A model generated the notes under the pieces. It saw only the letters and a list, made by a program, of their open reading frames with translations, had not been told where the DNA came from and ran no database searches. A stretch of 25,936 nucleotides of DNA. It comes from a virus. Taxonomy: Duplodnaviria > Heunggongvirae > Uroviricota > Caudoviricetes. The stretch lies in the IMG/VR virus record IMGVR_UViG_2778261085_000012, positions 1 through 25,936 of that record; one strand, written 5' to 3'. Shown here piece by piece: positions 8,824 through 25,936 of the stretch (its first letter is position 1; each line of letters begins with the position of its first letter). Both the position numbers and the translations under genes were made by a program.

Positions 8824-9024
8824 CTACTCCCCCCACAACTGAATCATTTCTCGTTTCTTCTTCTCCGGCTCCGGCATCTCCACTTCCTGCCCGGCGTCCA
8901 GAAATACCTGCTGACAGAGTCCGGGGTTGGCATCCAGCACCTTTTCGGTGACGCCCTGCGTCGTGCCGTAGTACCGGAAACAGAGCGAATCCACGGTGTC
9001 GCCTTCCAGTGCCTTCACTTTCAT
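8824..9024 (-). CDS. X: tail protein X
   Basis: MKVKALEGDTVDSLCFRYYGTTQGVTEKVLDANPGL matches P2 gpX; ATG overlaps the L stop. Confidence 0.8.
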   Translation of the reverse strand: MKVKALEGDTVDSLCFRYYGTTQGVTEKVLDANPGLCQQVFLDAGQEVEMPEPEKKKREMIQLWGE

Positions 9025-9527
9025 CAGCACAGCTCCGCAAAGATTCGCGGGCGGCGCAGAATGTCAGAGATGGCCCAGCTCACATCGCGCCACAAATCCG
9101 ATGTCTGTATATCCAGTGCGTCCGCGCGGCGGTCGCCCTTATCCGTTGTGTCCGCATCGCGGTAACGCTCCAGAATCAGGGCGCGTGTGGCGGTATAAAC
9201 GGCATTGCGCCAGTGCCAGAGATTGACGCTTTCTCCGTTAATTACGGGTGCCGGAACATCGGCCAGCGTCTGATGGCCAGCCGCCTGTTGTTCCTGCTGC
9301 CACGCTTCCAGCTCGCGGGTAACGTGTGCCACGGCCCCGGTGGCGGTATGCAGCAGGCGGGAGGTGGTCACACGGCCCGGCAGTCGTATCGCCAGACGCA
9401 GCTCACGCAGCACAATATCCGGCCAGAATGCGCCCGCTGAAATACGGGTATCACCATCATCGGTATCGGTGATGTCGTCCTCTGCGGGTCCGGGGTTGGT
9501 TCTGGCAACCATACTCATGGGGTTCAC
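9024..9527 (-). CDS. L: head completion/stabilisation protein L
   Basis: 167 aa; position and C-terminal pattern (DLWRDVSWAISDILRRPR) as P2 gpL. Confidence 0.8.
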   Translation of the reverse strand: MNPMSMVARTNPGPAEDDITDTDDGDTRISAGAFWPDIVLRELRLAIRLPGRVTTSRLLHTATGAVAHVTRELEAWQQEQQAAGHQTLADVPAPVINGESVNLWHWRNAVYTATRALILERYRDADTTDKGDRRADALDIQTSDLWRDVSWAISDILRRPRIFAELC

Positions 9528-9620
9528 TCCTGAAAAAAATCGGGCGGTGGGTGCGCGGTGTAAACGGTCACGGAGTCAAACCGGAACACCGCGCACGCCG
9601 CCCGCTGACGGGGTCAGTCG

Positions 9621-10466: not shown

Positions 10467-11519
10467 TTAGCTGTCGGCGAACTTCAGGCCAGTGACCATC
10501 GCGCACTTGCCATAGTCTTCAACGACATAAGCGTCATTGATGGACTGGTAGGTGGCGATGCGGTTGTATTCCGGTTCGTCTTTCATCAGACGACGCATTG
10601 AACCTTTCTGCCAGTAAATCGACAGGTTGTTGAACGAGGTGATCAGCATCGTTGAATCCGGGAAGAACGGCGCAAGGAACACGCCCAGCCCGCCAATGGT
10701 GCGCGATGACAGAATGAGCTGCCCGGCGAGTAATTCCGCATTGGGATTCTGGCCGCTGATGCTGTTCAGCACGGGCAGACGCAGCGAGTTAAACAGGTTG
10801 CGCCCCATAATCACCACGAGGTCGTCAGCTTCCTTGTGCCATTCATCCAGCAGGGATGAGCGCGCGTCCTGTACCAGTGCATCAGCGTTCGCATACTTAC
10901 CCGCGTGCGCCACGGTGTTGTCCATGTTACGGGAGGTCAGCGTCACGTCATTCATAACGCGTTCGCTGGCGTCGGTTCTGATGTGCTCCAGCCAGCCCAC
11001 GTTAACGTCCTGAAGCAACTTGTTGGTGCTGAAGTTGGACTCATCCGCGTGAGACGTGCCGTTGAAACCGATCATGATGCGGTCAAGTGCCACCTGTCGG
11101 GCAATCTGTGCGCTGATGCGGGACTGAAAATCAGGGTGTGCCGCCCAGGTATCAAGCTGCGGATATGAAATAAACGTGTCGTAGTTCACCTGTTCGCACT
11201 GGTATTTGCGGTTTTTCAGATCAACCACGTTATTCGGGTTACGGCGTTTTGTGCCGTCATAACTGGTATTCGTGCGCGCAATCGGCCCGGTGGTATCCGG
11301 GAGGATTTTTTCGCCTTTCTGGTCTGTCACGCCGATCACGTTAATTCTTTTTGTAAATTCGGTGCTTTCCTTTGAGGCGTTTTCAAAACGCTGCTGTACC
11401 GAGGGTTCCACGGTAAATCGCGATACCAGTGCGGAAACCGGGATATTGTTAAGCGACGCCTGCTGCGCCATATAGCAACCCAGCTTGTTGCGGGTAATAT
11501 CTGACATCACCAGATTCAT
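10467..11519 (-). CDS. N: major capsid protein N
   Basis: 350 aa; FTVEPSV...GEKI...MIGFNG...LQDVNVGWL...LVVIMGRNL...LSIYWQ...YVVEDY pattern as P2 gpN; AGGAG upstream of the ATG. Confidence 0.9.
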   Translation of the reverse strand: MNLVMSDITRNKLGCYMAQQASLNNIPVSALVSRFTVEPSVQQRFENASKESTEFTKRINVIGVTDQKGEKILPDTTGPIARTNTSYDGTKRRNPNNVVDLKNRKYQCEQVNYDTFISYPQLDTWAAHPDFQSRISAQIARQVALDRIMIGFNGTSHADESNFSTNKLLQDVNVGWLEHIRTDASERVMNDVTLTSRNMDNTVAHAGKYANADALVQDARSSLLDEWHKEADDLVVIMGRNLFNSLRLPVLNSISGQNPNAELLAGQLILSSRTIGGLGVFLAPFFPDSTMLITSFNNLSIYWQKGSMRRLMKDEPEYNRIATYQSINDAYVVEDYGKCAMVTGLKFADS

Positions 11520-11542
11520 AAAAAATTTGCTCCTTTGTCTTA

Positions 11543-12379
11543 TCAGAAGTCAGCCAGCTGGTCGGAGGCTGCGCCCGTTGCGGTGAACCGGTTTTGCGGA
11601 TCGCCGTCCTGCGTGCGCAGTTTTTCCTTCAGTGCTGCCAGCTCTGTGGTCAGTGAAGTGATTTTCTGGCTGTCCTGCTGATGGCGGGTTTCCAGCGCAT
11701 TAAAACGGTCGATAATGTCGGCCTGTGACGTTGCGACGCCTTCCACCGCTTCCTGAATGCGGGAGAAACTGGCGTCATCCGCTTTGCGGCCACGGCCAAT
11801 AATCCCCATTACGCGGTTAAACCACTGGGTGCCTTCTTCCTGGCGTTGTTCTGCCATTTCGATGATTTCAGACTCGATGGCTTCGGAGATAAGCGGTGCT
11901 TCACCCTGGATACTGTTGAACGTCATCACCGCCTGACGTTGCTGTGCCGTGAATTTCAGGCGCTCAGTGCCCAGGCTTGCCGGGGTGTCGGTCATCGCCA
12001 GCCCGACCAGATAGGCGCGCCCGTTAACGGAGAACTGCGGGTGCAGTTCGATACTGGAATAGATTTTCTTGCCGTCAGCGACAAGCTGCTTCATGCGCTC
12101 GGTCGGTTCGATTTCTGCATACAGCGCAGTACGTCCGGCCAGCGGGCCTTCCGTAATATCTTCCGTACTCAGCGCGGTGACATCGCCCATTGCGGAAAAT
12201 TCGCTTGACGGGCATGGCGAGAGATAGTGCTCAACGTTCACGCGGGCAGCGTAAACATCCGGGTTGAAGTTCTCGGCGGCTTCACGCAGATGTACCGGAC
12301 TGATTTCGCGGCCATCAACAGTTGATCCGGAGACAGCCACGCGAAACTTTTTGCGGGATGTCTTTTTTTCATTAGCCAT
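11543..12379 (-). CDS. O: capsid scaffolding protein O
   Basis: Start taken at MANEKKTSRKKFRVAVSGSTVDGREISP preceded by GAGGGG; collinear with P2 gpO. Track ORF begins 11 codons further upstream. Confidence 0.8.
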   Translation of the reverse strand: MANEKKTSRKKFRVAVSGSTVDGREISPVHLREAAENFNPDVYAARVNVEHYLSPCPSSEFSAMGDVTALSTEDITEGPLAGRTALYAEIEPTERMKQLVADGKKIYSSIELHPQFSVNGRAYLVGLAMTDTPASLGTERLKFTAQQRQAVMTFNSIQGEAPLISEAIESEIIEMAEQRQEEGTQWFNRVMGIIGRGRKADDASFSRIQEAVEGVATSQADIIDRFNALETRHQQDSQKITSLTTELAALKEKLRTQDGDPQNRFTATGAASDQLADF

Positions 12380-12533
12380 AGTTTTTGCCCCTCTGACTGG
12401 TTCTTCAGTCATGATGGCAAAGCGTAACAGGCTGATACAAAGGGCTTTTGTTGTAAGAAAACGGCCAGAACAGGCGGTTAAGGAGAACAGTTTCGCGCGC
12501 GGGTAATCTTCCTGTAATTACTCAGGGGGAGCA
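12380..12533. promoter_or_regulatory. divergent late promoter region between O and P
   Basis: Intergenic region between divergently oriented O and P, as in P2 where Ogr-activated late promoters lie here. Specific -35/-10 elements and activator half-sites were not resolved by eye. Confidence 0.4.
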
Positions 12534-14285
12534 ATGATTCAGGACGCTTTTGTGCGCCAGCGTGCGCGGCAACTTTACTGGCAGGGTTATCCGCCCGCAG
12601 AAATATCACGTCTGATGGGAATAAACCCGAACACGATTTATGCGTGGAAAAAACGCGACCAGTGGGATGAAACACCACCCGTGCAGCGTGTCACGCAGTC
12701 CATCGATGCGCGCCTCATCCAGCTTACTGAAAAACAGAATAAAACAGGCGGTGACTTTAAGGAAATAGACCTGCTGACCCGGCAGCTTAAAAAGCTGCAT
12801 GATGGCCAGCCGGATGTGATGGCCGCAGGAAAGAAAGGCCGGGCGAAAAAACTCAAAAATCATTTCACGCCGGAACAGATTGCCGCACTGCGGGAAAAAA
12901 TCATCAGCAGGCTGGAGTGGCATCAGCGGGGCTGGTTTGACTCCCTGACCCTTTGCAGGGAAGCCGGGATACGTAACAGGATGATCCTGAAATCCCGACA
13001 GATTGGGGCGACCTGGTATTTTGCACAGGAAGCACTGCTGATGGCGCTGCGTGACGATGTGGCGCAACCTTACCAGCGTAACCAGATTTTTTTGTCTGCG
13101 TCGCGTCGTCAGGCGTTCCAGTTTAAAAGCATTATTCAGAAGGCCGCGGCTGAAGTTGATGTGGAGCTGAAAGGGGGCGATAAAATCATCCTCTCCAACG
13201 GCGCAGAGCTGCATTTTCTCGGCACTTCTGCTGCGTCGGCACAGTCCTATACGGGCAATTTTTATTTTGATGAATTTTTCTGGGTCAGTCGCTTTGCTGA
13301 ACTGCGCAAGGTGGCTGGCGCTATGGCAACCCTCAGCGGACTGCGGCGCACCTACTTCTCCACGCCATCCACCGAAACGCACGAGGCATACGCCTACTGG
13401 AACGGCGACCGCTGGAACGAGAAAAAGGCCTCGCATAAACGCCAGCGTTTTTCTGTGGACTGGAAAACGCTGCATAACGGGCTTATCTGCCCTGACCGGA
13501 CGTGGCGGCAAATTGTCACGCTGGAAGATGTGGTTAATCACGGCTGGAAACACACCGATATCGACGAAATTCGTGATGAAAACACCGAAGACGAGTTCCT
13601 CAATCTCTATATGTGTGAGTTTGTCCGCGAAGGGGAATCGGCATTTAACCTGAATATCCTGATTGGCTGCGGTGTTGACGGATACGACGACTGGAAAGAC
13701 TGGAAACCTTTTGCTCCCCGCCCGATGGGAAATCGTCCGGTATGGATTGGGTATGACGCAAACGGCAGCAGTGGCAACGGCGACAGCGGCGCTGTGTCCG
13801 TGGTGGTTCCTCCGGCTGTTCCTGGTGGCCGTTTTCGAACGGTGGAGACGCGACGCGTTCAGGGGCTGGAGTTTGAAGAACAGGCCAGAGTCATTGAAGA
13901 GTTCACGTGTCGCTACAACGTGGAACACATCGGCATTGATGTGACGGGCGGGAACGGGGAGGCTGTTTATCAGATAGTGAAACGGTTTTTCCCTGCTGCT
14001 ATTCCGTACACCTTCACGCTGTCATCAAAACGGTCGCTGGTACTGAAAATGCTGCAAATAATGCGTGCCGGGCGGTGGGAATACGATCGCGCCGAACGCG
14101 AACTGGTCGCGGCCTTTAACGCCGTGCGTAAGGTGAAAACACCGGGCGGCTTTATCACTTACGAAACGGACCGCGCGAGGGGGATCAGCCACGGCGACCT
14201 TGCGTGGGCGACCATGCTTGCTGTCATTAACGAACCAATTGGCGGCGAAGGAGAAAACGAGCGTTTCACGGTTATGGAGTTCTGA
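12534..14285 (+). CDS. P: terminase large (ATPase) subunit P
   Basis: 583 aa; RBS AGGGGGA; N-terminus MIQDAFVRQRARQLYWQGYPPAEISRLMGINPNTIYAWKKRDQWDE typical of P2-family terminase. Confidence 0.9.
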   Translation: MIQDAFVRQRARQLYWQGYPPAEISRLMGINPNTIYAWKKRDQWDETPPVQRVTQSIDARLIQLTEKQNKTGGDFKEIDLLTRQLKKLHDGQPDVMAAGKKGRAKKLKNHFTPEQIAALREKIISRLEWHQRGWFDSLTLCREAGIRNRMILKSRQIGATWYFAQEALLMALRDDVAQPYQRNQIFLSASRRQAFQFKSIIQKAAAEVDVELKGGDKIILSNGAELHFLGTSAASAQSYTGNFYFDEFFWVSRFAELRKVAGAMATLSGLRRTYFSTPSTETHEAYAYWNGDRWNEKKASHKRQRFSVDWKTLHNGLICPDRTWRQIVTLEDVVNHGWKHTDIDEIRDENTEDEFLNLYMCEFVREGESAFNLNILIGCGVDGYDDWKDWKPFAPRPMGNRPVWIGYDANGSSGNGDSGAVSVVVPPAVPGGRFRTVETRRVQGLEFEEQARVIEEFTCRYNVEHIGIDVTGGNGEAVYQIVKRFFPAAIPYTFTLSSKRSLVLKMLQIMRAGRWEYDRAERELVAAFNAVRKVKTPGGFITYETDRARGISHGDLAWATMLAVINEPIGGEGENERFTVMEF

Positions 14286-15331
14286 TGAGCAGAAAAAATA
14301 AAAAAGTGCGCATGAGTTCACGCATTGATCTCGCTGATGCGCTCAGGAAAGAATCATCGCTCAGTGCATTCACATTTGATGGTCCTTATCGCCTGACCGG
14401 GCATGACCTGCTGGACAATATGTACTGTGCTGATAACGGGCGGTGGTATGAAACCCCGGTGGACTGGTACGGTCTGGCAAGAGCTGCCCGGCAAACGTCC
14501 TGGCATCAGTCTGCGCTTTACTTTAAGCGCAATGTATTACTCGGTTGCTACATCCCGCACCCGCTGCTTTCCCGGCAGGATTTCTCGGCGCTGGCGCTGG
14601 ACTGGTTTGTGTTCGGTAACGCATTCCTTGAGCTTCGAAGCAATATGCTCGGCGAACCGCTTAAATTACGGCACGCCCTGGCGAAATACATGCGACGCGG
14701 AAGCGATCTTGAATCATGGTGGTATGTGCAGGATGGCAAGGACGCGTTCCAGTTTCGCCCTGGCAAAGTGTGCCACCTGATGAATCCGGATATTAACCAG
14801 GAAATCTACGGCATGCCGGAATATCTCGGCGCATTACTCTCGGCCAGCCTGTCTCATTCGGCGGACATGTTCAGAAAACTGTATTACGACAACGGATCCC
14901 ACGCCGGGTGCATCATCTACATCGGTGCAGCGCAGGTAAACCGCGAAAGCATGGACTCCCTGAAAGAAACGTTACAGGGTGCACGTGGTGGTGGTGCGTT
15001 TAAAAACGTGCTCATTCATGCGCCCAACGGGGGCAAAGAGGGGGTGCAAATTTTGCCGTTCCAGCAGATCACCGCAAAGGATGAGTTCATGAATGTTAAG
15101 GCGGCATCCCGTGATGATGTGCTGGCTGCGCACCGTGTCCCGCCGCAACTGATGGGGGCGATGCCGGGTGAAAAAAGTGCGTTTGGTGATGTGGAGAAGG
15201 CCGCGCGGGTTTACGCAATTAACGAGCTGATGCCCGTCATGGAGGCCATGAAGCACATCAATGACTGGCTTGGCGAAGAGGTGATCCGCTTTAACCCTTA
15301 TGCACTGCTGGACACCCAGCCCACATCCTGA
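14285..15331 (+). CDS. Q: portal protein Q
   Basis: 348 aa; start MSRKNKKVR overlaps the P stop (TGATG); size and position as P2 gpQ. Confidence 0.9.
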   Translation: MSRKNKKVRMSSRIDLADALRKESSLSAFTFDGPYRLTGHDLLDNMYCADNGRWYETPVDWYGLARAARQTSWHQSALYFKRNVLLGCYIPHPLLSRQDFSALALDWFVFGNAFLELRSNMLGEPLKLRHALAKYMRRGSDLESWWYVQDGKDAFQFRPGKVCHLMNPDINQEIYGMPEYLGALLSASLSHSADMFRKLYYDNGSHAGCIIYIGAAQVNRESMDSLKETLQGARGGGAFKNVLIHAPNGGKEGVQILPFQQITAKDEFMNVKAASRDDVLAAHRVPPQLMGAMPGEKSAFGDVEKAARVYAINELMPVMEAMKHINDWLGEEVIRFNPYALLDTQPTS

Positions 15332-15784: not shown

Positions 15785-15815
15785 CAAAAAAAAGCGCCTT
15801 ATCGGCGCTTCAAAA
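15785..15815 (-). terminator. Rho-independent terminator (minus strand)
   Basis: On the minus strand: AAGCGCC gataa GGCGCTT followed by a T9 run; sits just 3' of the 15819..16088 ORF. Confidence 0.6.
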
Positions 15816-15818
15816 GTA

Positions 15819-16088
15819 TCAATTGTTGCTGTGTATTAATCGCCAACCACGAACATATGCTTCATAGGCATCTCTGTGCCTTACAGTTCCAGCCTGGCTA
15901 AACGGAATGTTAGCTAAAACTAAATCATTCTGAGCCATAGCGCGTCCTTCAAGCGCATCTTTTATGCCTAGCTCAAAAGCACAGGCAGCGCATTTGTGCC
16001 GACCTTCTTGTCCTTGATATTCAGGGAGAGACAGAAATGTTGGGTTATAACGATGAGGGTTCTTGCAAATACCTGTTTTAGCCCGCAC
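15819..16088 (-). CDS. hypothetical 89-aa Cys/His-containing protein in the cargo slot
   Basis: GTG start preceded by GAGGT; intrinsic terminator directly downstream; contains CxxxH...HxCxxC. Overlaps a probably spurious plus-strand ORF. Confidence 0.35.
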   Translation of the reverse strand: MRAKTGICKNPHRYNPTFLSLPEYQGQEGRHKCAACAFELGIKDALEGRAMAQNDLVLANIPFSQAGTVRHRDAYEAYVRGWRLIHSNN

Positions 16089-16111
16089 TTTATTTACCTC
16101 ATAGGAAAAAT

Positions 16112-16250
16112 ATGCGTGCCTTTACAGAGGTGCGTGTAAGCAATAAAATATACGACGCACATTTTGATTTACTTCGGAAGGCACGCATATCAGGTTAAGT
16201 GAGTCCGACCGAGTTTTACGCCCCAATAGTTGCTGCTATTGGGGCGTTTT
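16112..16250 (+). other. candidate small transcript (sRNA or 28-aa peptide) ending in an intrinsic terminator
   Basis: Promoter-like TTTACA-N17-TAAAAT; 13-bp long-range inverted repeat ATATGCGTGCCTT/AAGGCACGCATAT; possible 28-codon ORF with RBS AGGA; terminator hairpin at the 3' end. Confidence 0.25.
16219..16250 (+). terminator. Rho-independent terminator (plus strand)
   Basis: CGCCCCAATAG ttgctg CTATTGGGGCG followed by TTTT. Confidence 0.6.
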
Positions 16251-16452
16251 GCATGGACAATGCCGCGCAATTATCTTGTCGCTCACAATGCGAACGATCT
16301 TACAAAAAGGCACATTACTGTCAAGATAATTGATCGTTTTAATCGATAGATAATATACAATCTATTTGTTTAACAGATCGATTATTGAAGTAAGTGTGCC
16401 AAATGGAATGATACTGTTTCTATAAACGTGAGCATTTTTCGCGCAGATGCTT

Positions 16453-16764
16453 TTACTCAGGAAATAACGCCCGGATATTCCCAGCCATCTGGCTGGTTAT
16501 TTTAGCCACTGGTGCAGACTGTGCTTCAAACTTTTTTGAGCTGATTTGTGTCACAGGTAACATCTCATCATCAGCCCATGCGGCCAGTCGGTAAGCCTCT
16601 GCCGGATTCGTCTTCAGAAGTGCCAGCCCGGCCAGAAAAGCCACGCGTTGGCCGCTTTTGCGGGCTTCTGGTGTAAGGCTGTCCAGCCAGGCGCATGCTT
16701 CTCCTTCGTTCTTGACGGCAGCTGGCTTCAGATAGAAACTTATCCGTCTGGTTGGTGTCGTCAT
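16453..16764 (-). CDS. parR: ParR-like centromere-binding protein (plasmid R1 ParR/StbB family)
   Basis: 103 aa; RRISFYLKP...AWLDSLTPEARKSGQRVAFLAGLALLKTNP parallels the R1 ParR N-terminal region; located immediately downstream of the ParM-like gene. Confidence 0.65.
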   Translation of the reverse strand: MTTPTRRISFYLKPAAVKNEGEACAWLDSLTPEARKSGQRVAFLAGLALLKTNPAEAYRLAAWADDEMLPVTQISSKKFEAQSAPVAKITSQMAGNIRALFPE

Positions 16765-16768
16765 TGGT

Positions 16769-17728
16769 TTACTCCTTGTTCATTGCGTACAGCCCATTAA
16801 CCAGAGCAAACTGTGGCACCCCGTCCGCGATGAAAGTCGCATTAACTCCGCAGGCTTCGCGGATAGCGGGTGCCACAATCTCCGCTCCTCCACCGACAAC
16901 CATCACCCGCCCGTAACCCGAAAAACCCGCCAGCGCGCGGATCACGCGTTGTTTCAGTGTTTCCTCCTTTTCACGAATAACTGCCATCAGGCTGGCGTAA
17001 TGCGCGTCATTGTGGATGTGCTGGCGCAGCCAGGCTTCATCGTGGCGATGTTCGATAATGGTACTGGCGATGTGGTGACTGGTGCGCATACCGTTGGTGG
17101 CCATCACCGACAGCACGGCATCGGCCATCAGAGAAACGCCTACGTGTGGATCGCAAAACACCTGGCTGATACCTGCCAGTTGCCCCTGAACCTTTGCCAC
17201 ATCCAGCGTGGTTCCGCCCAAATCCACAATCAGCAGGGATTCAAACGGACTCATGCCAGCCAGTGCTTTAAAGCCAGCCGGAATGGATTCAGGCATAACC
17301 CGCACGTTACGGATAGTGAATGCCTCGCCGTTCTGGTACTCCACCGGGCGCATGACGTTCGCTTTTTTGCGGTTGATGTTGGCCATGTCCGGCTGTGCGT
17401 TTGTGTCGAAATACTCGCTCAGTGGCAGGGTGACAACCACATCCACTTCCTGTGGTGTGATACCTGATTTGACCAGCGCATGATGAATGGCAATCACATT
17501 CACATCGCTGTACTGGTATTGCGTGTCAGTTGTCTGAACAAAGCGATCGCTGACCGGATCAAAATCATAGCGCACGCCATCAATCATGTAGTTTGCGGGT
17601 TGCGTGCCACCGAACGGCGCAGACCATTCCGACTTGAAGCTGTTCGGGCTGATGGCGTTGCGACGTTCGCCGTTCTCAGTCCATGCCAGCTTGATGTTGG
17701 TGGAGCCGTCGTCGATACAAATTTTCAT
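16769..17728 (-). CDS. parM: ParM/StbA-like actin-family ATPase
   Basis: 319 aa; MKICIDDGSTNIKLAW..., YSDVNVIAIHHAL, MPESIPAG, LIVDLGGTTLD and VMVVGGGAE are collinear with plasmid R1 ParM. Confidence 0.85.
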   Translation of the reverse strand: MKICIDDGSTNIKLAWTENGERRNAISPNSFKSEWSAPFGGTQPANYMIDGVRYDFDPVSDRFVQTTDTQYQYSDVNVIAIHHALVKSGITPQEVDVVVTLPLSEYFDTNAQPDMANINRKKANVMRPVEYQNGEAFTIRNVRVMPESIPAGFKALAGMSPFESLLIVDLGGTTLDVAKVQGQLAGISQVFCDPHVGVSLMADAVLSVMATNGMRTSHHIASTIIEHRHDEAWLRQHIHNDAHYASLMAVIREKEETLKQRVIRALAGFSGYGRVMVVGGGAEIVAPAIREACGVNATFIADGVPQFALVNGLYAMNKE

Positions 17729-17759
17729 GTCGATTTTCCTTATGTTGATTAATTAATCG

Positions 17760-17870
17760 TTTACGGGATTCTGAAATCCCGTTTTTGCCTGTTTTGTGTG
17801 CGCTTCATATATCGCGGCGCGTTTTTTGCTCATTTACGGGATTTGTGAATCCCGTTTCTGTCTGTTTTTT
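17760..17870. repeat. two copies of an approx. 40-bp repeat, each with a perfect hairpin, spaced about 71 bp
   Basis: TTTACGGGATTcTGAAATCCCGTTTtTGcCTGTTTT and TTTACGGGATTtGTGAATCCCGTTTcTGtCTGTTTT; copy 1 is in the A/parM intergenic region, copy 2 is inside the A 3' end. Confidence 0.7.
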
Positions 17871-20627
17871 GTTTCCACTGGTCAGGCCACCCCGCAGCAG
17901 GTCTGCTTTGCGGCGGGCGCGTTCAGTGGTTTCACTGATTCTCAGTGCGTGCTCTGCGTCGCGGATGGCGCGCAGCATGTCAGAAAGCACGGTAACGGGT
18001 GTTTTCATGGTGTTCTGGTCTTGCTGAAGTGTGGATGCCAGGCGTGCGGCGGCTTCGGGGTCTGATGCCCCCAGCTGTTCCAGATAGCTGGCGACCGGGT
18101 TATGGCGGATCTCCGTGCTGCTTACGCCGTGATTACGGCTCAGGCGCTGCCAGAGCTGCGTGATTCGGCTGTCCGGTCGGGTATCTGGTTTGCGTACAAT
18201 TTCAAATCCCTGCGGTGCAATGATGCTGCCGTCAACGTACAGACTGCCGCCCCGTAACAGGTGCAGCATCTGTTGTTCACCGATATGCAGGCCGAGAGAT
18301 TCGGCAGACTCCCGCCATTCTTTAGCGAGTAACTCGTGGTTATCAGGCAAAGGTCGCGGCTGTTTGCGGCTCTGTGTCCAGTTCTGCATTTCATCGCTGC
18401 TGTTTTTTGCCTGTTTGTCACGAAGCGAACGCATCAGCGCTCGGCGTTCGTGCCGTTTCAGTGAGCGCATCCATTCATTTACTTCAACGCCGTCAGGAAG
18501 CTGCGGCCACGGTGCTGGCCGTTCTTCCGGCTGTTCTGTTCCGTTGTTGCTCGTTTCCTGTACACGGGGACAGTTATTGCCACGAGTCCAAGGGGCGGCA
18601 GGGCCGCCCTGAAGGTCAAAACCATTTTCGCGGGCGCTGTCTTCCGTTTCCGGTTTACGTCTTACCAGTTTCCAGTTATCCGGATGCGTGCATACACGGG
18701 AGGATTCCCCGATGAGTGGTGACCAGATCCCGTAAATCTGTACGCTCTGTTCGCCGTAATCATTCAGCTCATCTGCGAGGTCGTAGGCGGTGCGAATCAG
18801 GTAGTCTTTGCGTGGAACAAGTACGCCGCCCTGTTTTTCAATGTAGGTGGCAAAACACCCGGCATCGGCGGCAGCGAGTACCGCATCCATTGCGTCATCT
18901 TTCAGTCGTTGCGGGCCTTCCGGGTTGCGTGCCATCTGGCTGGCAAGGCGGCGCAGTTCACGCCACACCTGACGGGAGGGGATGCCAAAGAACTGGAACT
19001 GGCGGACCCGATGAAGGCGCGCCCAGCCGATGGCGCGCTCCACACTCTCGGCCATTGATTTTCCGGTTTCGTGGTCAACGCGTGGCTTGCCCGTTTTCGG
19101 GTCGATGCCATCCACGGCGCGGCTGTCCAGGTTCTTTCCGATGTAGGTCGCGATATAGCTGGTTGGTGTGCCTTTTGAGCCGTCGACATACTCCGCCTTA
19201 AAGCGCGGAGTAATATCATTGCCCAGCTCGTGGCGGTCTTCCTGAATGGCAATATCGCGGGTGATGGCCACGATGCTGTCGATTTCTTCCGGATGAGCAA
19301 AGACCATCATATGCCAGTGCACGGTGCCGTCATGGTGAGGCTCCACCGTGCGGATGCCATACCAGCGCAGACCGTCGCGGTTCAGTTTTTTGCGGACTGC
19401 CGCAAAAAACGTGTTAACCAGGTAATCGCTGGAGTCGCGCATGGTGGCCCCGTTCCATTTGGGATTCGGATTACCGTTCTCTGTTGTGGCGTGGTATTTT
19501 GACGGGCAGGTGACAGTCAGAAACACCGCTCTGTCGCCACGGGCTTCGGCCAGAAGTTCCAGCCCCTTCATGGTGGCCATCATTTCTGCCTTACGGTGAA
19601 CCGGGTTACTTACTCCCGCGTAATACACTGTCTCGAGATCAATCGTGAACCCGTCTTCGTTTTCCAGCATGAAACTTTTCAGGAAATCGCGTGTTTTCTC
19701 GCGCTGCGCGCGAAACTCGCTTAATGCGTCCTGACTCAGATAGGGCGATGTTTTTCTGGAAACCAGACAGGCGGCGCGGAGTTGTTCTTCCCGCCACTCG
19801 CAACGTAACAGCCACAGTTTGCGTTTCCACCATTCCGCACAGGTCAGGCGAAGGATTGCACCCGGCAGCAGCTCCGTGTCCGGTTCGTTCCTCCGGTCTT
19901 TGTCTGTTGTCAGTGCGTCATAATGTGGAGGCATGGCGTGCAGGTGTAACGCCATGCGGGCCAGCATCTGATACGCCTTCAGCGTTACATCCATGGTCAG
20001 CTCGCCATCGGTCGCGCCAAAGCCATCGCAGAGTTTTTCGAAAGTGCTGCTGAACATCGCCGCCGTCATGGTGGCCAGCGTCTGTATCTGGTGTTTGTTG
20101 AGCTGCGGCAGGTAAAGCAAATCATCCAGGCGTTCGCGTCCGGCAAGGGAGCGATAACCCGGTGTCAGCCAGCGGTGGTCGGTGCGGTCCAGACGTTCGA
20201 ATATTTTGCGCAGGGTTCCGCGTGCATAGCGTTCCGCCTGCCAGCTCTTTTTGCCTTTCCGGCGATCGGCTTCCTGTTTTTTGCGCAGGAAGGAGAGGTG
20301 GCGAATAAGCGGATCGCGCAGATAGGACGGCAGCAGGCGCAGCGAGGCCATGGCTTCATCCACCGCGCCGCGTGCCTGTTTTCTGGCGTCTCCTGCCAGT
20401 GTGATGGTTTTGTCCTGTTTTTCCTGTGCGTCCAGGTTTTTATTAATCAGGTTGCCCAGCGGCGTGGCGGAGAACGCCGCATCAGCCATTTCCTGGCGGC
20501 GCTCGTTCTCTACCCGGTAGGCATCCAGCCAGGAGGAAAGCGCGGATTTAGGAGCGGGGATCCCCGTTCCTTCACGCCCCACTGCGTGGCGCGGTTGTTG
20601 CCAGTCCCTGATGTACTCTGCCGTCAT
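17805..20627 (-). CDS. A: replication initiation endonuclease A (rolling-circle, P2 gpA-like)
   Basis: 940 aa; conserved core ...LTVTCPSKYH...WYGIRTVEPHHDGTVHWHMMVF...YIATYIGKNLD...; longer than P2 A (about 760 aa as remembered). Confidence 0.9.
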   Translation of the reverse strand: MTAEYIRDWQQPRHAVGREGTGIPAPKSALSSWLDAYRVENERRQEMADAAFSATPLGNLINKNLDAQEKQDKTITLAGDARKQARGAVDEAMASLRLLPSYLRDPLIRHLSFLRKKQEADRRKGKKSWQAERYARGTLRKIFERLDRTDHRWLTPGYRSLAGRERLDDLLYLPQLNKHQIQTLATMTAAMFSSTFEKLCDGFGATDGELTMDVTLKAYQMLARMALHLHAMPPHYDALTTDKDRRNEPDTELLPGAILRLTCAEWWKRKLWLLRCEWREEQLRAACLVSRKTSPYLSQDALSEFRAQREKTRDFLKSFMLENEDGFTIDLETVYYAGVSNPVHRKAEMMATMKGLELLAEARGDRAVFLTVTCPSKYHATTENGNPNPKWNGATMRDSSDYLVNTFFAAVRKKLNRDGLRWYGIRTVEPHHDGTVHWHMMVFAHPEEIDSIVAITRDIAIQEDRHELGNDITPRFKAEYVDGSKGTPTSYIATYIGKNLDSRAVDGIDPKTGKPRVDHETGKSMAESVERAIGWARLHRVRQFQFFGIPSRQVWRELRRLASQMARNPEGPQRLKDDAMDAVLAAADAGCFATYIEKQGGVLVPRKDYLIRTAYDLADELNDYGEQSVQIYGIWSPLIGESSRVCTHPDNWKLVRRKPETEDSARENGFDLQGGPAAPWTRGNNCPRVQETSNNGTEQPEERPAPWPQLPDGVEVNEWMRSLKRHERRALMRSLRDKQAKNSSDEMQNWTQSRKQPRPLPDNHELLAKEWRESAESLGLHIGEQQMLHLLRGGSLYVDGSIIAPQGFEIVRKPDTRPDSRITQLWQRLSRNHGVSSTEIRHNPVASYLEQLGASDPEAAARLASTLQQDQNTMKTPVTVLSDMLRAIRDAEHALRISETTERARRKADLLRGGLTSGNKKQTETGFTNPVNEQKTRRDI

Positions 20628-20633
20628 AGTGAT

Positions 20634-20999
20634 TTACTTCGTCATGCCATTCAGGGTGTCGCGGCAGACTGTAGCCAGCCGCTGAATTTCCAGCACGGTG
20701 TCTTCTGTGTCGGTATGGCGATGTGTGATGCGGATGCTGTCGGCAATCACATCGACGATTGCAGAGGATGGGCGCTGGTAAATGCCAATAACGGACGGGG
20801 TGCCACCTTCAATGCGGTAAAGCCTGTAATTTCCCTCGTGGCTGTCAATCATGTAGCGACCATCAATAACAATCTTTCCGTCAGCGAGCTGCGGTACAGG
20901 CAGGGATTTCAGGTACATGTCATAACGATCACGCACGCGAGCGGCAAGATCACGCTCTGTGTTGAGCAGGTATTCAAGAAAGTCGTTGGCGAGAATCAT
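20634..20999 (-). CDS. hypothetical early protein (121 aa), coupled to A
   Basis: Stop 7 nt upstream of the A start codon, same strand; no recognisable family. Confidence 0.5.
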   Translation of the reverse strand: MILANDFLEYLLNTERDLAARVRDRYDMYLKSLPVPQLADGKIVIDGRYMIDSHEGNYRLYRIEGGTPSVIGIYQRPSSAIVDVIADSIRITHRHTDTEDTVLEIQRLATVCRDTLNGMTK

Positions 21000-21071
21000 T
21001 GCGGCAATCCTCTTGTTACAGATGTGCGAAGGCCTCCCGCCGCAAGGTGCAGGAAAGGCCCGGAACAGGAA

Positions 21072-21302
21072 TTAATGGAGTTTGTTTTGCTGCTGGATGA
21101 GCTGTTGAAGCTCGTGCAGATCATCCGCCAGATAGCTGAAAACAGAGGCGGAATAAATGTTTGATAGTGCGTGGCTGCGCTCATGCAACATATTGATGTG
21201 CATGATTTGCGCGACGCGTGTTGCGCGAAAAAGTCTGCGGTTGATTTCGCTGCGGATGTGAATACGCTCAGCGCGGGCGCGCTGTTGCATGCGGTTTGCC
21301 AT
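21072..21302 (-). CDS. hypothetical basic protein (76 aa)
   Basis: ORF downstream of the structured intergenic region, same strand as A; GAGG about 9 nt upstream of the start; overlaps long spurious ORFs, so uncertain. Confidence 0.3.
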   Translation of the reverse strand: MANRMQQRARAERIHIRSEINRRLFRATRVAQIMHINMLHERSHALSNIYSASVFSYLADDLHELQQLIQQQNKLH

Positions 21303-21486
21303 GACGTGGCCTCGTGTATAGTAAGTTTTGAAAACTCACCATCCAGAGTTGAGAATCTCGGGGTGGCGAGACGTACGGGGTTCTCAACACCGGCTACACA
21401 CGATCCCGGCCCGACCGAAGTCGGCCCCGTACGCCCCGCCATAATTCTGACGCGAAAAAGACGTGGCAATACAGTACGCACAAAAA

Positions 21487-21502
21487 AACCGCTGGCGCGG
21501 TT
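21487..21502 (-). terminator. candidate intrinsic terminator (minus strand) inside the early operon
   Basis: On the minus strand: AACCGC gcca GCGGTT followed by T7; short 6-bp GC-rich stem. Confidence 0.35.
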
Positions 21503-21599
21503 GTGCGCGTGTGTAGTCAGCGGGTTGAGAATCCCGGCACCCGTTTTATGAGGTGCAGCGGAAATGTAACCCGACTCAACGAGCGCTGGCAAGCGGTTT

Positions 21600-21627
21600 T
21601 TGTGTTGCGTGCTGAAGTATGTATAAT
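21600..21627 (+). promoter_or_regulatory. sigma70-type promoter for the antisense cargo gene
   Basis: TTGTGT - 16 nt - TATAAT, with TG immediately upstream of the -10; 60 nt upstream of the ATG at 21689. Confidence 0.55.
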
Positions 21628-21688
21628 CGCGGCGCAAAAATGGAATGCGCCGAAGGATAGCGGCGTTTATTAACAATGGAGGTTGTTT

Positions 21689-22156
21689 ATGCCTGTTGCT
21701 ATGGAGCAAGCAGACAAGAAGATTTTTTTCCATCTGTGGTACAGCTACTGGCTGGAAGAGATGGTTTTCATACTCAACAACAAGGCCGCTTTTGTGCTGC
21801 GCTCTGGAGCCTTGATTGCTGCGGTGTTGTCTTTTCTTCTGATTGAGTTCCCTGCCCTGATGAGTCTTTGCGGACTGGTGTTTTTTGGTTTTTCCTGGTT
21901 TTGCAGCAAGTGTGAATTCGTCGCCGAACTGGCGTGCTGGCAGAAACAGAGCTATCTGCGTCTGATTACGCAAAGGGATTTTATGACCACTGAACGCCTC
22001 ACTGAGCGCATTCTGCATCTGGAAGAAACGAACAGCGCATACATGAAAGCGATTGTCAGGCCCGCAAAAAACAAAGCGAGTGCATCTGTTGGGTTGTCTG
22101 CCAGCGAACATTTGCGTTACTCCGAAAGGTTAATTTGCTGGTTGTGCAGTTTCTGA
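21689..22156 (+). CDS. predicted membrane protein (155 aa) encoded antisense within the early operon (moron)
   Basis: Strong RBS GGAGG with 6-nt spacer; own promoter; hydrophobic stretch AFVLRSGALIAAVLSFLLIEFPALMSLCGLVFFGFSWF (about 2 TM helices); opposite orientation to all flanking early genes. Confidence 0.65.
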   Translation: MPVAMEQADKKIFFHLWYSYWLEEMVFILNNKAAFVLRSGALIAAVLSFLLIEFPALMSLCGLVFFGFSWFCSKCEFVAELACWQKQSYLRLITQRDFMTTERLTERILHLEETNSAYMKAIVRPAKNKASASVGLSASEHLRYSERLICWLCSF

Positions 22157-24600: not shown

Positions 24601-24912
24601 ATGTCAAGTGGGTACGAAAAAAAACTGAAAGAGATACGGAAAAGTGAAGGGTTAACTCAAGCTGAGTTTGCAGATGTTACTGGGATAAATCTCGGAACTA
24701 TAAAGAATTATGAGAGCGGTAAAAGAGAGGTTGGTTTAAGCGTTGTTGATCGCGTAATTAATTCTAAGGATTTCGAAAAATACACTATATGGCTTATGAC
24801 GGGAAAAACAAATGAGGCTGCTGGGCAGATCAGTCCCTCTCTCTCCCCTGATGGGCCAGAAAACACATCGTCTTTTCAAAAATCCCGCAAGACTGGTACA
24901 CAGCCCGGCTAA
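24601..24912 (+). CDS. C: immunity repressor, P2 C-type (HTH)
   Basis: 103 aa; LKEIRKSEGLTQAEFADVTGINLGTIKNYESGKR...KYTIWLMTGK parallels P2 C (VLMRKSEYLSRQQLADLTGVPYGTLSYYESG...KYTLWFMT). Confidence 0.85.
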   Translation: MSSGYEKKLKEIRKSEGLTQAEFADVTGINLGTIKNYESGKREVGLSVVDRVINSKDFEKYTIWLMTGKTNEAAGQISPSLSPDGPENTSSFQKSRKTGTQPG

Positions 24913-24961
24913 TCATGGAACGCTGGGGGCATGGTGGTCTTGTAACGCTGGGGTTTCACGA

Positions 24962-25936
24962 ATGAGCATAAAATCAATTCCGGGAGGGTATCTTCTTGAC
25001 ATGCGCCCTGAGGGGCGTAAAGGCAAACGCATTCGCAAAAAATTTAAAACGAAATCGGATGCAGTTTTATATGAGCGGTGGGTGCTGGCGCAACAGCATA
25101 ACAATGAGTGGAAAGGAAACTCCATTGATCGCCGTCCGCTGTCGGTGCTTATTGACTTGTGGTGGAAATACCACGGCCAGCTAATGAAGTCAGGGCATAA
25201 CACGCGCCTTAAATTGCTGCGCTTGAGTGAGGCAATGGATGACCCGTGCGTGCATAAACTTAATACAACGATGCTCACCGAGCTACGTGTGTCCAGGATA
25301 GAGCAGGGGATACAGCCCAGCACCATTAATCGAGAGATTGGGGCGTTAAGCGCGATGTTTACCGCACTCATCTCATCCGGCCATTTTCTTAACGATAACC
25401 CCGTTCAAGGCCTTAAAGGAATGAAGGTTAACGAGCGCGAAATGGGATATCTGAGTAAGTCTGAATGTGTTCAGTTGCTGGATGCACTGGCTGAAAATCC
25501 CGATGAACGGCTGGCTGTCGAAATCCTTCTGTCGACCGGGGCGCGATGGGGCGAGGTAGCGGCACTGGAGCAGCGCCGTGTTCTTCATTGTCGAATCACT
25601 TTTTCAAAAACGAAGAACAGCAAAAACCGTACCGTTCCTATTTCTGAAAGCCTGTTTGAAAAGATCAAAAAACGGGGCGGGAAACTGGTGTTTCCGACGC
25701 TGGATTATCCATTGGTTCGCGATGTCATCAAAACGGTCGCACCTGATGTTCCTGACGGCCAGGCTGTTCATGCGCTGCGCCACACCTTCGCCAGTCATTT
25801 CATGATGAACGGCGGCAATATTCTGACGCTCCAGAAAATTCTGGGGCACGCAAAGATTCAGACAACGATGATTTATGCCCATCTTGCGCCGGATTACTTG
25901 CAGGATGCGGTGAGATTTAATCCTATTGCTGGGTAA
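24962..25936 (+). CDS. int: tyrosine integrase
   Basis: Start taken at MSIKSIPGGYLLDMRPEG; C-terminal catalytic motifs HALRHTFASHFMMNGGNILTLQKILGHAKIQTTMIYAHL; stop codon is the last triplet of the window. Confidence 0.9.
   Translation: MSIKSIPGGYLLDMRPEGRKGKRIRKKFKTKSDAVLYERWVLAQQHNNEWKGNSIDRRPLSVLIDLWWKYHGQLMKSGHNTRLKLLRLSEAMDDPCVHKLNTTMLTELRVSRIEQGIQPSTINREIGALSAMFTALISSGHFLNDNPVQGLKGMKVNEREMGYLSKSECVQLLDALAENPDERLAVEILLSTGARWGEVAALEQRRVLHCRITFSKTKNSKNRTVPISESLFEKIKKRGGKLVFPTLDYPLVRDVIKTVAPDVPDGQAVHALRHTFASHFMMNGGNILTLQKILGHAKIQTTMIYAHLAPDYLQDAVRFNPIAG

Follow-up and report, generated by a model that had tools for sequence, protein, structure and literature searches.

Why would a phage that integrates into the chromosome of its host carry, directly beside its replication gene, a segregation locus of the kind found on low-copy plasmids? 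The question is raised by the adjacent genes parM and parR (together parMR) of IMG/VR virus record IMGVR_UViG_2778261085_000012 (Caudoviricetes), positions 1 to 25,936 of which were analyzed as a single stretch of 25,936 nt, referred to here as the window. The element is a P88-like prophage of the genus Xuanwuvirus, family Peduoviridae; phages of that genus, among them Escherichia phages 520873, 503458, P88, Chuche, and PhiR44_2 and Citrobacter phage phiSM, match the region at 94-97% identity. The two genes are intact, are under purifying selection, keep the same order beside replication gene A across genera, and are preceded by a conserved pair of palindromes. We consider it moderately likely that they constitute a working type II (ParMRC) partition locus, acting on the circular phage genome replicated by A at times when that genome is extrachromosomal.

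An intact ParM and ParR pair

The first-pass annotation, made from the letters of the window, had read the two genes as a plasmid-type ParM/ParR pair and had called for a check with profile hidden Markov models (HMMs), and the sequence matches from that check confirm the identity of both proteins. The genes are two co-oriented open reading frames (ORFs) on the minus strand, with coordinates in exact agreement with the span assigned to the pair in that annotation (Table 1), and they are coupled, the gap between them being 4 nt and the ribosome-binding site (RBS) of parR lying inside the last codons of parM. ParM is covered end to end by two Pfam domains, PF06406 (StbA_N; E = 2.5e-82, residues 1-157) and PF21523 (ParM C-terminal domain; E = 3.3e-68, residues 159-316), and the solved structures of R1 ParM (1MWK and others) match it at E = 7e-92 with phmmer. 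The proposed collinearity with plasmid ParM is borne out by a BLASTP alignment to R100 ParM with 46% identity over 318 residues and 2 gaps. The nucleotide-binding motifs that contact phosphate and adenosine (IDDGSTNIK, VMPESIPAG, DLGGTTLD, and GGGAE) are all intact.

ParR is the more diverged of the two proteins. It matches PF10784 (Plasmid_stab_B) at E = 9.8e-24 and shares 34% identity with the N-terminal domain of R100 ParR (56 residues). A single-sequence phmmer search of ParR against the PDB returned no match, and the solved structure of pB171 ParR (2JD3) was reached through profiles alone, as the top solved-structure match of a profile built from prophage proteins only (E = 0.0029) and at E = 2.7e-14 once other phage lineages and R100 ParR were added. 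An AlphaFold2 model of the ParR monomer (15 sequences) had a mean predicted local distance difference test score (pLDDT) of 57.6, too poor for a fold search, as would be expected for an obligate ribbon-helix-helix dimer.

The alignment of relatives divides ParR into three parts: an invariant N-terminal stretch consisting of RRISFYLKP and two helices, a hypervariable linker (about residues 65-93), and a conserved motif, NIRALFPE, strictly at the C-terminus. The same build is found in the Plesiomonas, Hafnia, Serratia, and Enterobacter proteins, and all phage lineages end in N-x-x-x-L-F-P-x, the Asn motif of which aligns with the end of R100 ParR (KKNAMKLIN). The C-terminal peptide of R1 ParR binds ParM (PDB 4A62). 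Judged by its sequence, this three-part architecture is what would be expected of a working adaptor.

PHROGs families 691 and 2515 ('partition protein') match the pair at 6.6e-88 and 2.3e-59, while an NCBIfam scan of the module gave sub-threshold matches only. Both genes are already named in phage records and RefSeq ('plasmid segregation protein ParM' and 'plasmid partitioning/stability family protein') and both have PHROGs families. Nothing is new here at the level of annotation; the gain is in the biology, and not in a new kind of system.

Conservation of parMR with the replication gene

ParM is carried by 14 of the 14 phage records in which the A protein is at least 80% identical to that of the window, and the same 14 records are recovered by either criterion. 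After these, the closest A proteins (Salmonella SEN8 and Klebsiella phages) reach 42-44% identity, that of P2 is 31% identical, and all of these come from phages without ParM. Among complete E. coli genomes, parMR is present in about a quarter (1303 of 5426), in up to three places per genome, as compared with 1328 genomes that have an A gene of this type (probe coverage of at least 80%). All but two of the 1451 parMR copies in these genomes are chromosomal (1449).

The association extends beyond Escherichia. In a scan that used one genome per species, every locus with a full-length ParM identity of at least 53.6% lies between a gpA homologue and a P2-type portal/terminase, and these gpA-linked loci come from Escherichia, Salmonella, Plesiomonas, Hafnia, Serratia, and Enterobacter. 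The ParM loci of the same scan at 52% or below include none with gpA and none with a detectable relative of the window ParR. Prophages of Plesiomonas, Hafnia, Serratia, and Enterobacter keep the order A-parM-parR-portal with ParM proteins that are 54-62% identical. An Apirhabdus plasmid considered as an exception (61% identity on an N-terminal segment) carries a frameshifted R1-like parM with direct iterons and is not of the phage type, and phage 500465-2, considered as a relative without parMR, belongs to a different genus and has a poorly delimited record, making it uninformative.

Several of these loci have features of their own. In E. albertii NBRC 107761 (locus L008, 7102-15128), gpA and ParM are 97% and 98% identical to the window proteins, ParR is 54% identical, and the portal and terminase are 30-35% identical; the recombination breakpoint of this mosaic phage falls within parR, past the conserved N-terminal DNA-binding part. 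Enterobacter ludwigii (locus L006; ORFs 11411-12757 and 8914-9609) has a KAP-family NTPase just downstream of parR and a methyltransferase-like ORF between A and parM, and in Hafnia (locus L004, 9453-9956) a 167-aa ORF lies between A and parM, so that in these other lineages insertions occur on the A side too. Enterobacterial-type ParM loci also appear in assemblies of Gram-positive, unrelated taxa titled Vagococcus, Streptomyces, Clostridiales, and Lachnospiraceae (loci L010, L029, L030, and L042), one of which, L010, is a P88-like phage region with 97% identity; contamination or mis-binning is the most likely source of these loci.

The sequence record leaves little room for the view that parMR is an inert relic of an old recombination between a plasmid and a phage, carried along by its linkage to A. 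Some truncated protein clusters in databases are in keeping with such decay, but pairwise ratios of nonsynonymous to synonymous substitution rates (dN/dS) for parM among seven relatives are 0.01-0.12, indicating strong purifying selection, and a full-length 319-aa ParM is intact in all 80 of 80 IMG/VR relatives. For parR the corresponding ratios are 0.11-0.52, with the changes mostly in the linker, while the tail and the DNA-binding strand are conserved. Together with synteny kept across genera down to 54% protein identity, these observations make a relic extremely improbable. The first-pass annotation had also raised the prospect that the module is a ubiquitous core gene pair of P2-like phages with an established replication role. 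It proves to be near-universal within its own lineage, but it is not universal among P2-like phages and has no established role.

A candidate centromere upstream of parM

The repeats at 17760-17870 that had been singled out as potential ParR targets are real. They comprise two 43-nt direct repeats, each containing a perfect 8+8 palindrome, ACGGGATT-N4-AATCCCGT, and the two 20-bp palindromes are 73 bp apart, or about seven helical turns. Two matches to the palindrome are found in the window where 0.07 would be expected. Both copies are present in 85 of 85 close relatives, and 83 of these retain the 73-bp spacing. In Plesiomonas and Hafnia the surrounding DNA is unalignable, yet upstream of the parM ATG a [CT]GGG-N10-CCC[GA] pair occurs, with its members at positions -53 to -60 and -126 to -132, 72-73 bp apart, and with the ATTAATCAA box and an RBS after it. 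In Hafnia the distal motif overlaps the end of an upstream ORF other than that found in the window; the pair therefore goes with parM and not with A. The palindromes have an A-rich CCC core reminiscent of the R100 parC iterons. On this pattern of conservation, the palindrome pair is the best candidate for the centromere (parC), to which ParR would be predicted to bind.

Two other roles for the palindromes were considered and rejected. Intrinsic terminators on the plus strand were set aside as the main reading, since no plus-strand gene runs into the palindromes, and the substitutions in their arms among the 85 relatives are one-sided and not compensatory, which argues against a selected hairpin although it is no proof of protein binding. 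As a P2-type replication origin (ori) they are displaced by the homologue of the P2 nick region at 18570-18618, and the motif pair in Hafnia follows parM and not A.

Between the proximal palindrome and the start of parM lies a conserved ATTAATCAA box, possibly a weak -10 element, for which a promoter function is uncertain. A sigma-70 scan found no promoter in 17729-17900, and a terminator scan found none on the minus strand between A and parM.

The variable interval lies beside parR

In P2, the stretch between gene A and cos holds the anti-phage genes tin and old, and the first-pass annotation had placed parMR in that cargo slot. The location itself holds up: parM starts 76 bp past the stop codon of A, the pair follows the replication gene directly, and the A-to-cos map stretch is the one occupied by tin and old. 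The reading of parMR as cargo of the same type does not. The P2 genes are variable, have an anti-phage function, and lie on the opposite strand under their own promoter with mapped transcript starts, whereas parMR is conserved, is co-oriented with A, and has no match to a defense system. A sequence scan between A and parM found no match to a promoter or to a minus-strand terminator. The presence and absence among near-identical phages expected of cargo is likewise not seen, neither in the 14 phage records nor in the genome counts for parMR and A given above, and the locus is syntenic in four other genera. By these comparisons of gene content and order, parMR is a lineage-conserved extension of the P88-like replication module and not an exchangeable cargo.

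Variation is instead concentrated on the other side of the pair. The distance between the parR stop codon and the portal gene takes at least 33 different values in 51 contigs, the smallest being 0.99 kb and the largest 3.1 kb, and this variable parR-cos interval next to a conserved parMR indicates that the hotspot resembling tin/old is the interval beside parR, with parMR as its conserved border. In the window the interval holds the orf89 cassette (Table 1), which only about 5-7 of 87 relatives have, as compared with about 57-60 for its flanks, and which is the true counterpart of P2 tin/old. The AT-rich repeats at 16260-16400, which the first-pass annotation had also listed for a check of ParR binding, belong to this cassette, and with that narrow distribution they are not part of the par locus. 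The cassette has no match in Pfam or PADLOC. Between the promoter-like site of orf89 and orf89 itself is a hairpin (16218-16247) opposite a plus-strand promoter-like site at 16121-16149; an Rfam scan gave two sub-threshold matches only (ctRNA_pGA1 and sar), both on this hairpin and at 22 bits against gathering thresholds of 43-45.

These results also bear on whether the locus serves as a weapon or a defense, either through incompatibility or exclusion exerted by ParR and parC against plasmids or related phages, or through co-option against phages in a known hotspot, as the first-pass annotation had suggested. The A-to-cos location, where P2 has tin and old, would fit such a role. The ParR DNA-binding strand and the palindromes are also common to all E. 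coli variants, such that related prophages resident in the same cell would share a centromere type. Against this, PADLOC returned no match for ParM, ParR, or orf89 at E ≤ 0.01, and it is the neighboring interval that is hypervariable while parMR is conserved. Plasmid ParR proteins are too diverged for detection by tblastn and the R100 parC iterons differ, making cross-binding to plasmid centromeres unlikely. Defensive co-option thus finds no backing, and exclusion or defense as the role of the locus is very unlikely overall.

Proposed partition of an extrachromosomal phage circle

If parMR is a working partition locus, its parts suggest how it may act. ParR dimers would bind the two palindromes (17763-17782 and 17836-17855) through the predicted N-terminal ribbon-helix-helix domain, and the conserved C-terminal tail would capture the ends of ParM-ATP filaments, the growth of which would push sister phage circles apart, as in plasmid R1. 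The substrate would be the extrachromosomal circle replicated by A, from a predicted ori that lies about 0.7 kb from the distal palindrome. Because parMR follows A in the same orientation with no recognizable strong promoter or terminator between them, we infer that it is expressed with the early/replication operon, by read-through perhaps aided by a weak promoter at the ATTAATCAA box. Expression would then fall after infection and before integration, after spontaneous excision, and during induction. Both daughter cells would inherit a copy, and the presumed selective benefit would be less abortive lysogeny and less prophage loss, much as srpMRC acts for excised SXT/R391 integrative conjugative elements (ICEs).

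Defective prophages offer a view of the locus apart from virion production. In E. coli O157:H7 ECP19-598 (locus L137, 2192.8-2213.2 kb), a defective P2-like prophage next to yecA has an IS3 in place of the head/packaging genes, a frameshifted tape measure gene, and an IS30 at the far end, while the int gene, the early genes, and A remain intact together with a 319-aa parM and a 104-aa parR. Its position and description suggest that this remnant is of the Sakai Sp13 type. Sp13 of O157 Sakai excises spontaneously into circles, replicates, and is amplified about 30-fold after mitomycin C without morphogenesis genes (PMC2669165). The loss of head genes with retention of an intact parMR fits a role in inheritance better than one in virion production.

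This last point bears on the main rival explanation, in which ParMR moves or spaces the replicating circles during the lytic cycle and thereby improves replication or packaging, with no part in the inheritance by daughter cells. The position of parMR at the end of the early/replication block, co-oriented with A, beside the probable ori, and without a strong promoter of its own, would suit a lytic organizer. A precedent exists in prophage CGP3 of Corynebacterium glutamicum, where the prophage actin AlpC and its DNA-binding adaptor AlpA are needed for efficient viral DNA replication (PMC4446434, PMC5539076). Conversely, the Sp13-type remnant retains intact parMR without head/packaging genes, and the pair is absent from other P2-like phages that replicate in the same mode. 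An organizer of the lytic cycle is therefore possible but distinctly less probable than not; it is compatible with the favored reading of parMR as a partition locus.

A facultative phage-plasmid, able to enter a stable, plasmid-like carrier state instead of integrating and maintained there by ParMRC, had been proposed in the first-pass annotation as an episomal lifestyle. One record speaks for it: NZ_CP148288.1, a circle of 34,461 bp that holds the whole genome of a P88-like phage (integrase, A, parMR, structural genes), was deposited as the circular non-mobilizable 'plasmid' pZ1323PEC0009-2 of E. coli Z1323PEC0009 (locus L002). The Sp13 circles are likewise found in uninduced cells (PMC2669165). 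The circular record could, however, be an assembled excision product; a sister strain, Z1323HEC0067, has the identical phage in its chromosome, with an identical tail-fiber region. Furthermore, chromosomal copies prevail as described above, the integrase is kept in all relatives, and the rolling-circle initiator gpA is the sole replication function seen, with no theta replicon found in the early region (ORFs left of 12534 were matched to structural genes through an annotated relative only). A carrier state as the norm is thereby unlikely, with the single circular record left in its favor, and a facultative phage-plasmid seems improbable.

Several observations weigh against partition as the function. 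There are two palindromic sites only, as compared with ten direct 11-bp iterons in R1, and these may be too few for a complete ParR ring like that of R1 to assemble. The palindrome arms vary as much among close relatives as the DNA beside them (variable columns 11 of 32 versus 37 of 110), and the Enterobacter and Serratia relatives have a different upstream layout with a long-range inverted repeat. With no sigma-70 promoter detected upstream of parM, the timing of expression is a guess. Lytic rolling-circle replication of the P2 type yields many copies, for which the need for active partition is not obvious, and P2, 186, and the Klebsiella P2-like phages do without parMR. Additionally, a literature search, with subscription journals outside its scope, found no functional study or analysis of ParM/ParR in P2-like phages; the P88 paper does not mention parMR, and partition goes unmentioned in a 2026 survey of 5945 P2-like genomes (PMC13100340).

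Comparison with known partition and prophage systems

The R1/R100 ParMRC systems (StbA/StbB/parC) are among the closest known in their components. They share a collinear ParM with all ATPase motifs, a parR directly downstream of parM with a coupled RBS, a homologous ParR N-terminal domain and an aligned C-terminal Asn tail, and repeated sites with an A-rich CCC core directly upstream of parM. The settings differ in that R1 and R100 are low-copy plasmids with theta replication whereas the element here is an integrating rolling-circle phage, and in that ten direct iterons flank the promoter of the plasmid systems whereas the window has the two spaced palindromes and no clear promoter of its own. 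An SFYLKP strand and a C-terminal LFP-x also set the window ParR apart, as part of a separate subfamily linked to phages.

For the likely mode of action, the closest match is probably srpMRC of the SXT/R391 ICEs, which lowers the loss of the excised, rolling-circle-replicating ICE and stabilizes a single-copy plasmid (Carraro et al. 2015, PMC4489591). As in the window, this is a ParM-type locus on an integrative element with a tyrosine integrase; its excised circle is replicated in rolling-circle fashion and it is expressed with the mobility/replication program, as would be predicted for parMR and its element too. Unlike the window pair, which is close to R1, SrpM and SrpR are distantly related to R1 ParM and ParR, and srpMRC sits on an ICE whereas the present locus, with its predicted function, is on a phage.

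The AlpC/AlpA/alpS system of CGP3 is comparable in that an actin-like filament former and a DNA-binding adaptor, encoded by an integrated prophage, act on phage DNA after induction. The likeness is by description; AlpC is a distant actin relative from a Gram-positive host and its reported role is in efficient viral DNA replication and transport, not partition. Beyond this lineage, the collection of phage records has a ParM homologue (StbA-type, 48% identity) in the P1-like phage-plasmid D6 alone, but D6 is a 91-kb plasmid prophage and its ParM is no closer to the window ParM than are plasmid ParMs. Phage-plasmids of the P1, N15, and SSU5 types have an extrachromosomal upkeep, in contrast to the almost entirely chromosomal, integrase-bearing type to which the window belongs.

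Gene neighborhood of the locus

The features of the window are collected in Table 1. The integrase and the repressor that the first-pass annotation had named are both on the element, as a tyrosine integrase and a helix-turn-helix (HTH) repressor. The window gpA is longer than the P2 A protein (940 aa versus 761 aa), and the match to P2 A spans residues 77-744 of 940 only. Within gene A, a local alignment places the predicted ori. The early region further contains a 371-aa ORF at 20996-22111 on the minus strand with a weak Ash-family match (E = 1.5e-4, under the Pfam cut-off), and small ORFs nearby correspond to DUF4754, DUF4761, and a MarR-like winged helix.

Table 1. Coordinates of the parMR locus and its surroundings in the window
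Feature	Position	Strand	Details and evidence
parM, actin-like segregation ATPase	16769..17728	-	319 aa, begins MKICIDDGSTNIKLAW; Pfam, R1 ParM structures, dN/dS
parR (stbB), ribbon-helix-helix-type adaptor	16453..16764	-	103 aa; PF10784, alignments, profile match to 2JD3
Candidate parC, proximal 43-nt repeat	17757..17799	.	Palindrome ACGGGATTctgaAATCCCGT at 17763-17782; A-parM intergenic, ~35-54 nt before parM ATG
Candidate parC, distal 43-nt repeat	17830..17872	.	Palindrome ACGGGATTtgtgAATCCCGT at 17836-17855; inside the terminal codons of gene A
Conserved ATTAATCAA box and AAGGA RBS	17729..17756	-	Directly upstream of parM; conserved island in three-lineage alignment
Gene A, rolling-circle replication initiator	17805..20627	-	940 aa; PF05840, 9.6e-131
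Homologue of P2 ori nick-site region (predicted ori)	18570..18618	-	Inside gene A; local alignment to P2 29862-29922 around annotated nick site
Portal and large terminase genes	12534-15331	+	Other side of parMR from A
HTH repressor and tyrosine integrase	24601-25936		
Variable cargo cassette, outside the par locus	15796..16452	-	orf89, promoter-like site, inverted repeat, terminator
orf89	15819-16088	-	phrog_3941, uncharacterized family; KCAAC motif
TTGACA-16-TAAGAT promoter-like site	16324-16297		Inverted repeat of 11 nt (perfect; 16268-16278/16322-16332) on either side
Strong terminator of orf89 cassette	15811-15791		
Hairpin with 12-bp perfect stem, ACGCCCCAATAG/CTATTGGGGCGT	16218-16247		T-run on plus strand only

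Implications for P88-like prophages

As a predicted partition locus, parMR joins the known partition systems on integrative mobile elements. Active partition is usually seen as a plasmid trait, and to find it fixed among the integrating phages of one widespread lineage suggests that these prophages spend long or frequent enough periods outside the chromosome for selection to act. A more far-reaching and tentative proposal is that P88-like prophages have a hidden plasmid-like phase, in which the rolling-circle-replicated circle is partitioned by a minimal two-palindrome ParMRC, by which the phage, and even remnants without head genes like O157 Sp13, could persist and be passed on vertically after excision or where attB is lacking. 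Should this be the case, such a phase would make integrating phages and phage-plasmids harder to tell apart, and the two-palindrome parC would be a natural minimal type II centromere. Two palindromes in place of ten iterons are also relevant to how ParR-parC complexes cap ParM filaments. The prevalence of the locus in E. coli and the unusually small candidate centromere make the extrachromosomal phase of P2-like prophages directly testable, as P88 and phiSM are culturable and inducible. An active partition of the phage circle would matter for the stability and spontaneous curing of prophages, for abortive lysogeny, and for how defective prophages persist in pathogens like O157:H7 and uropathogenic E. 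coli (UPEC).

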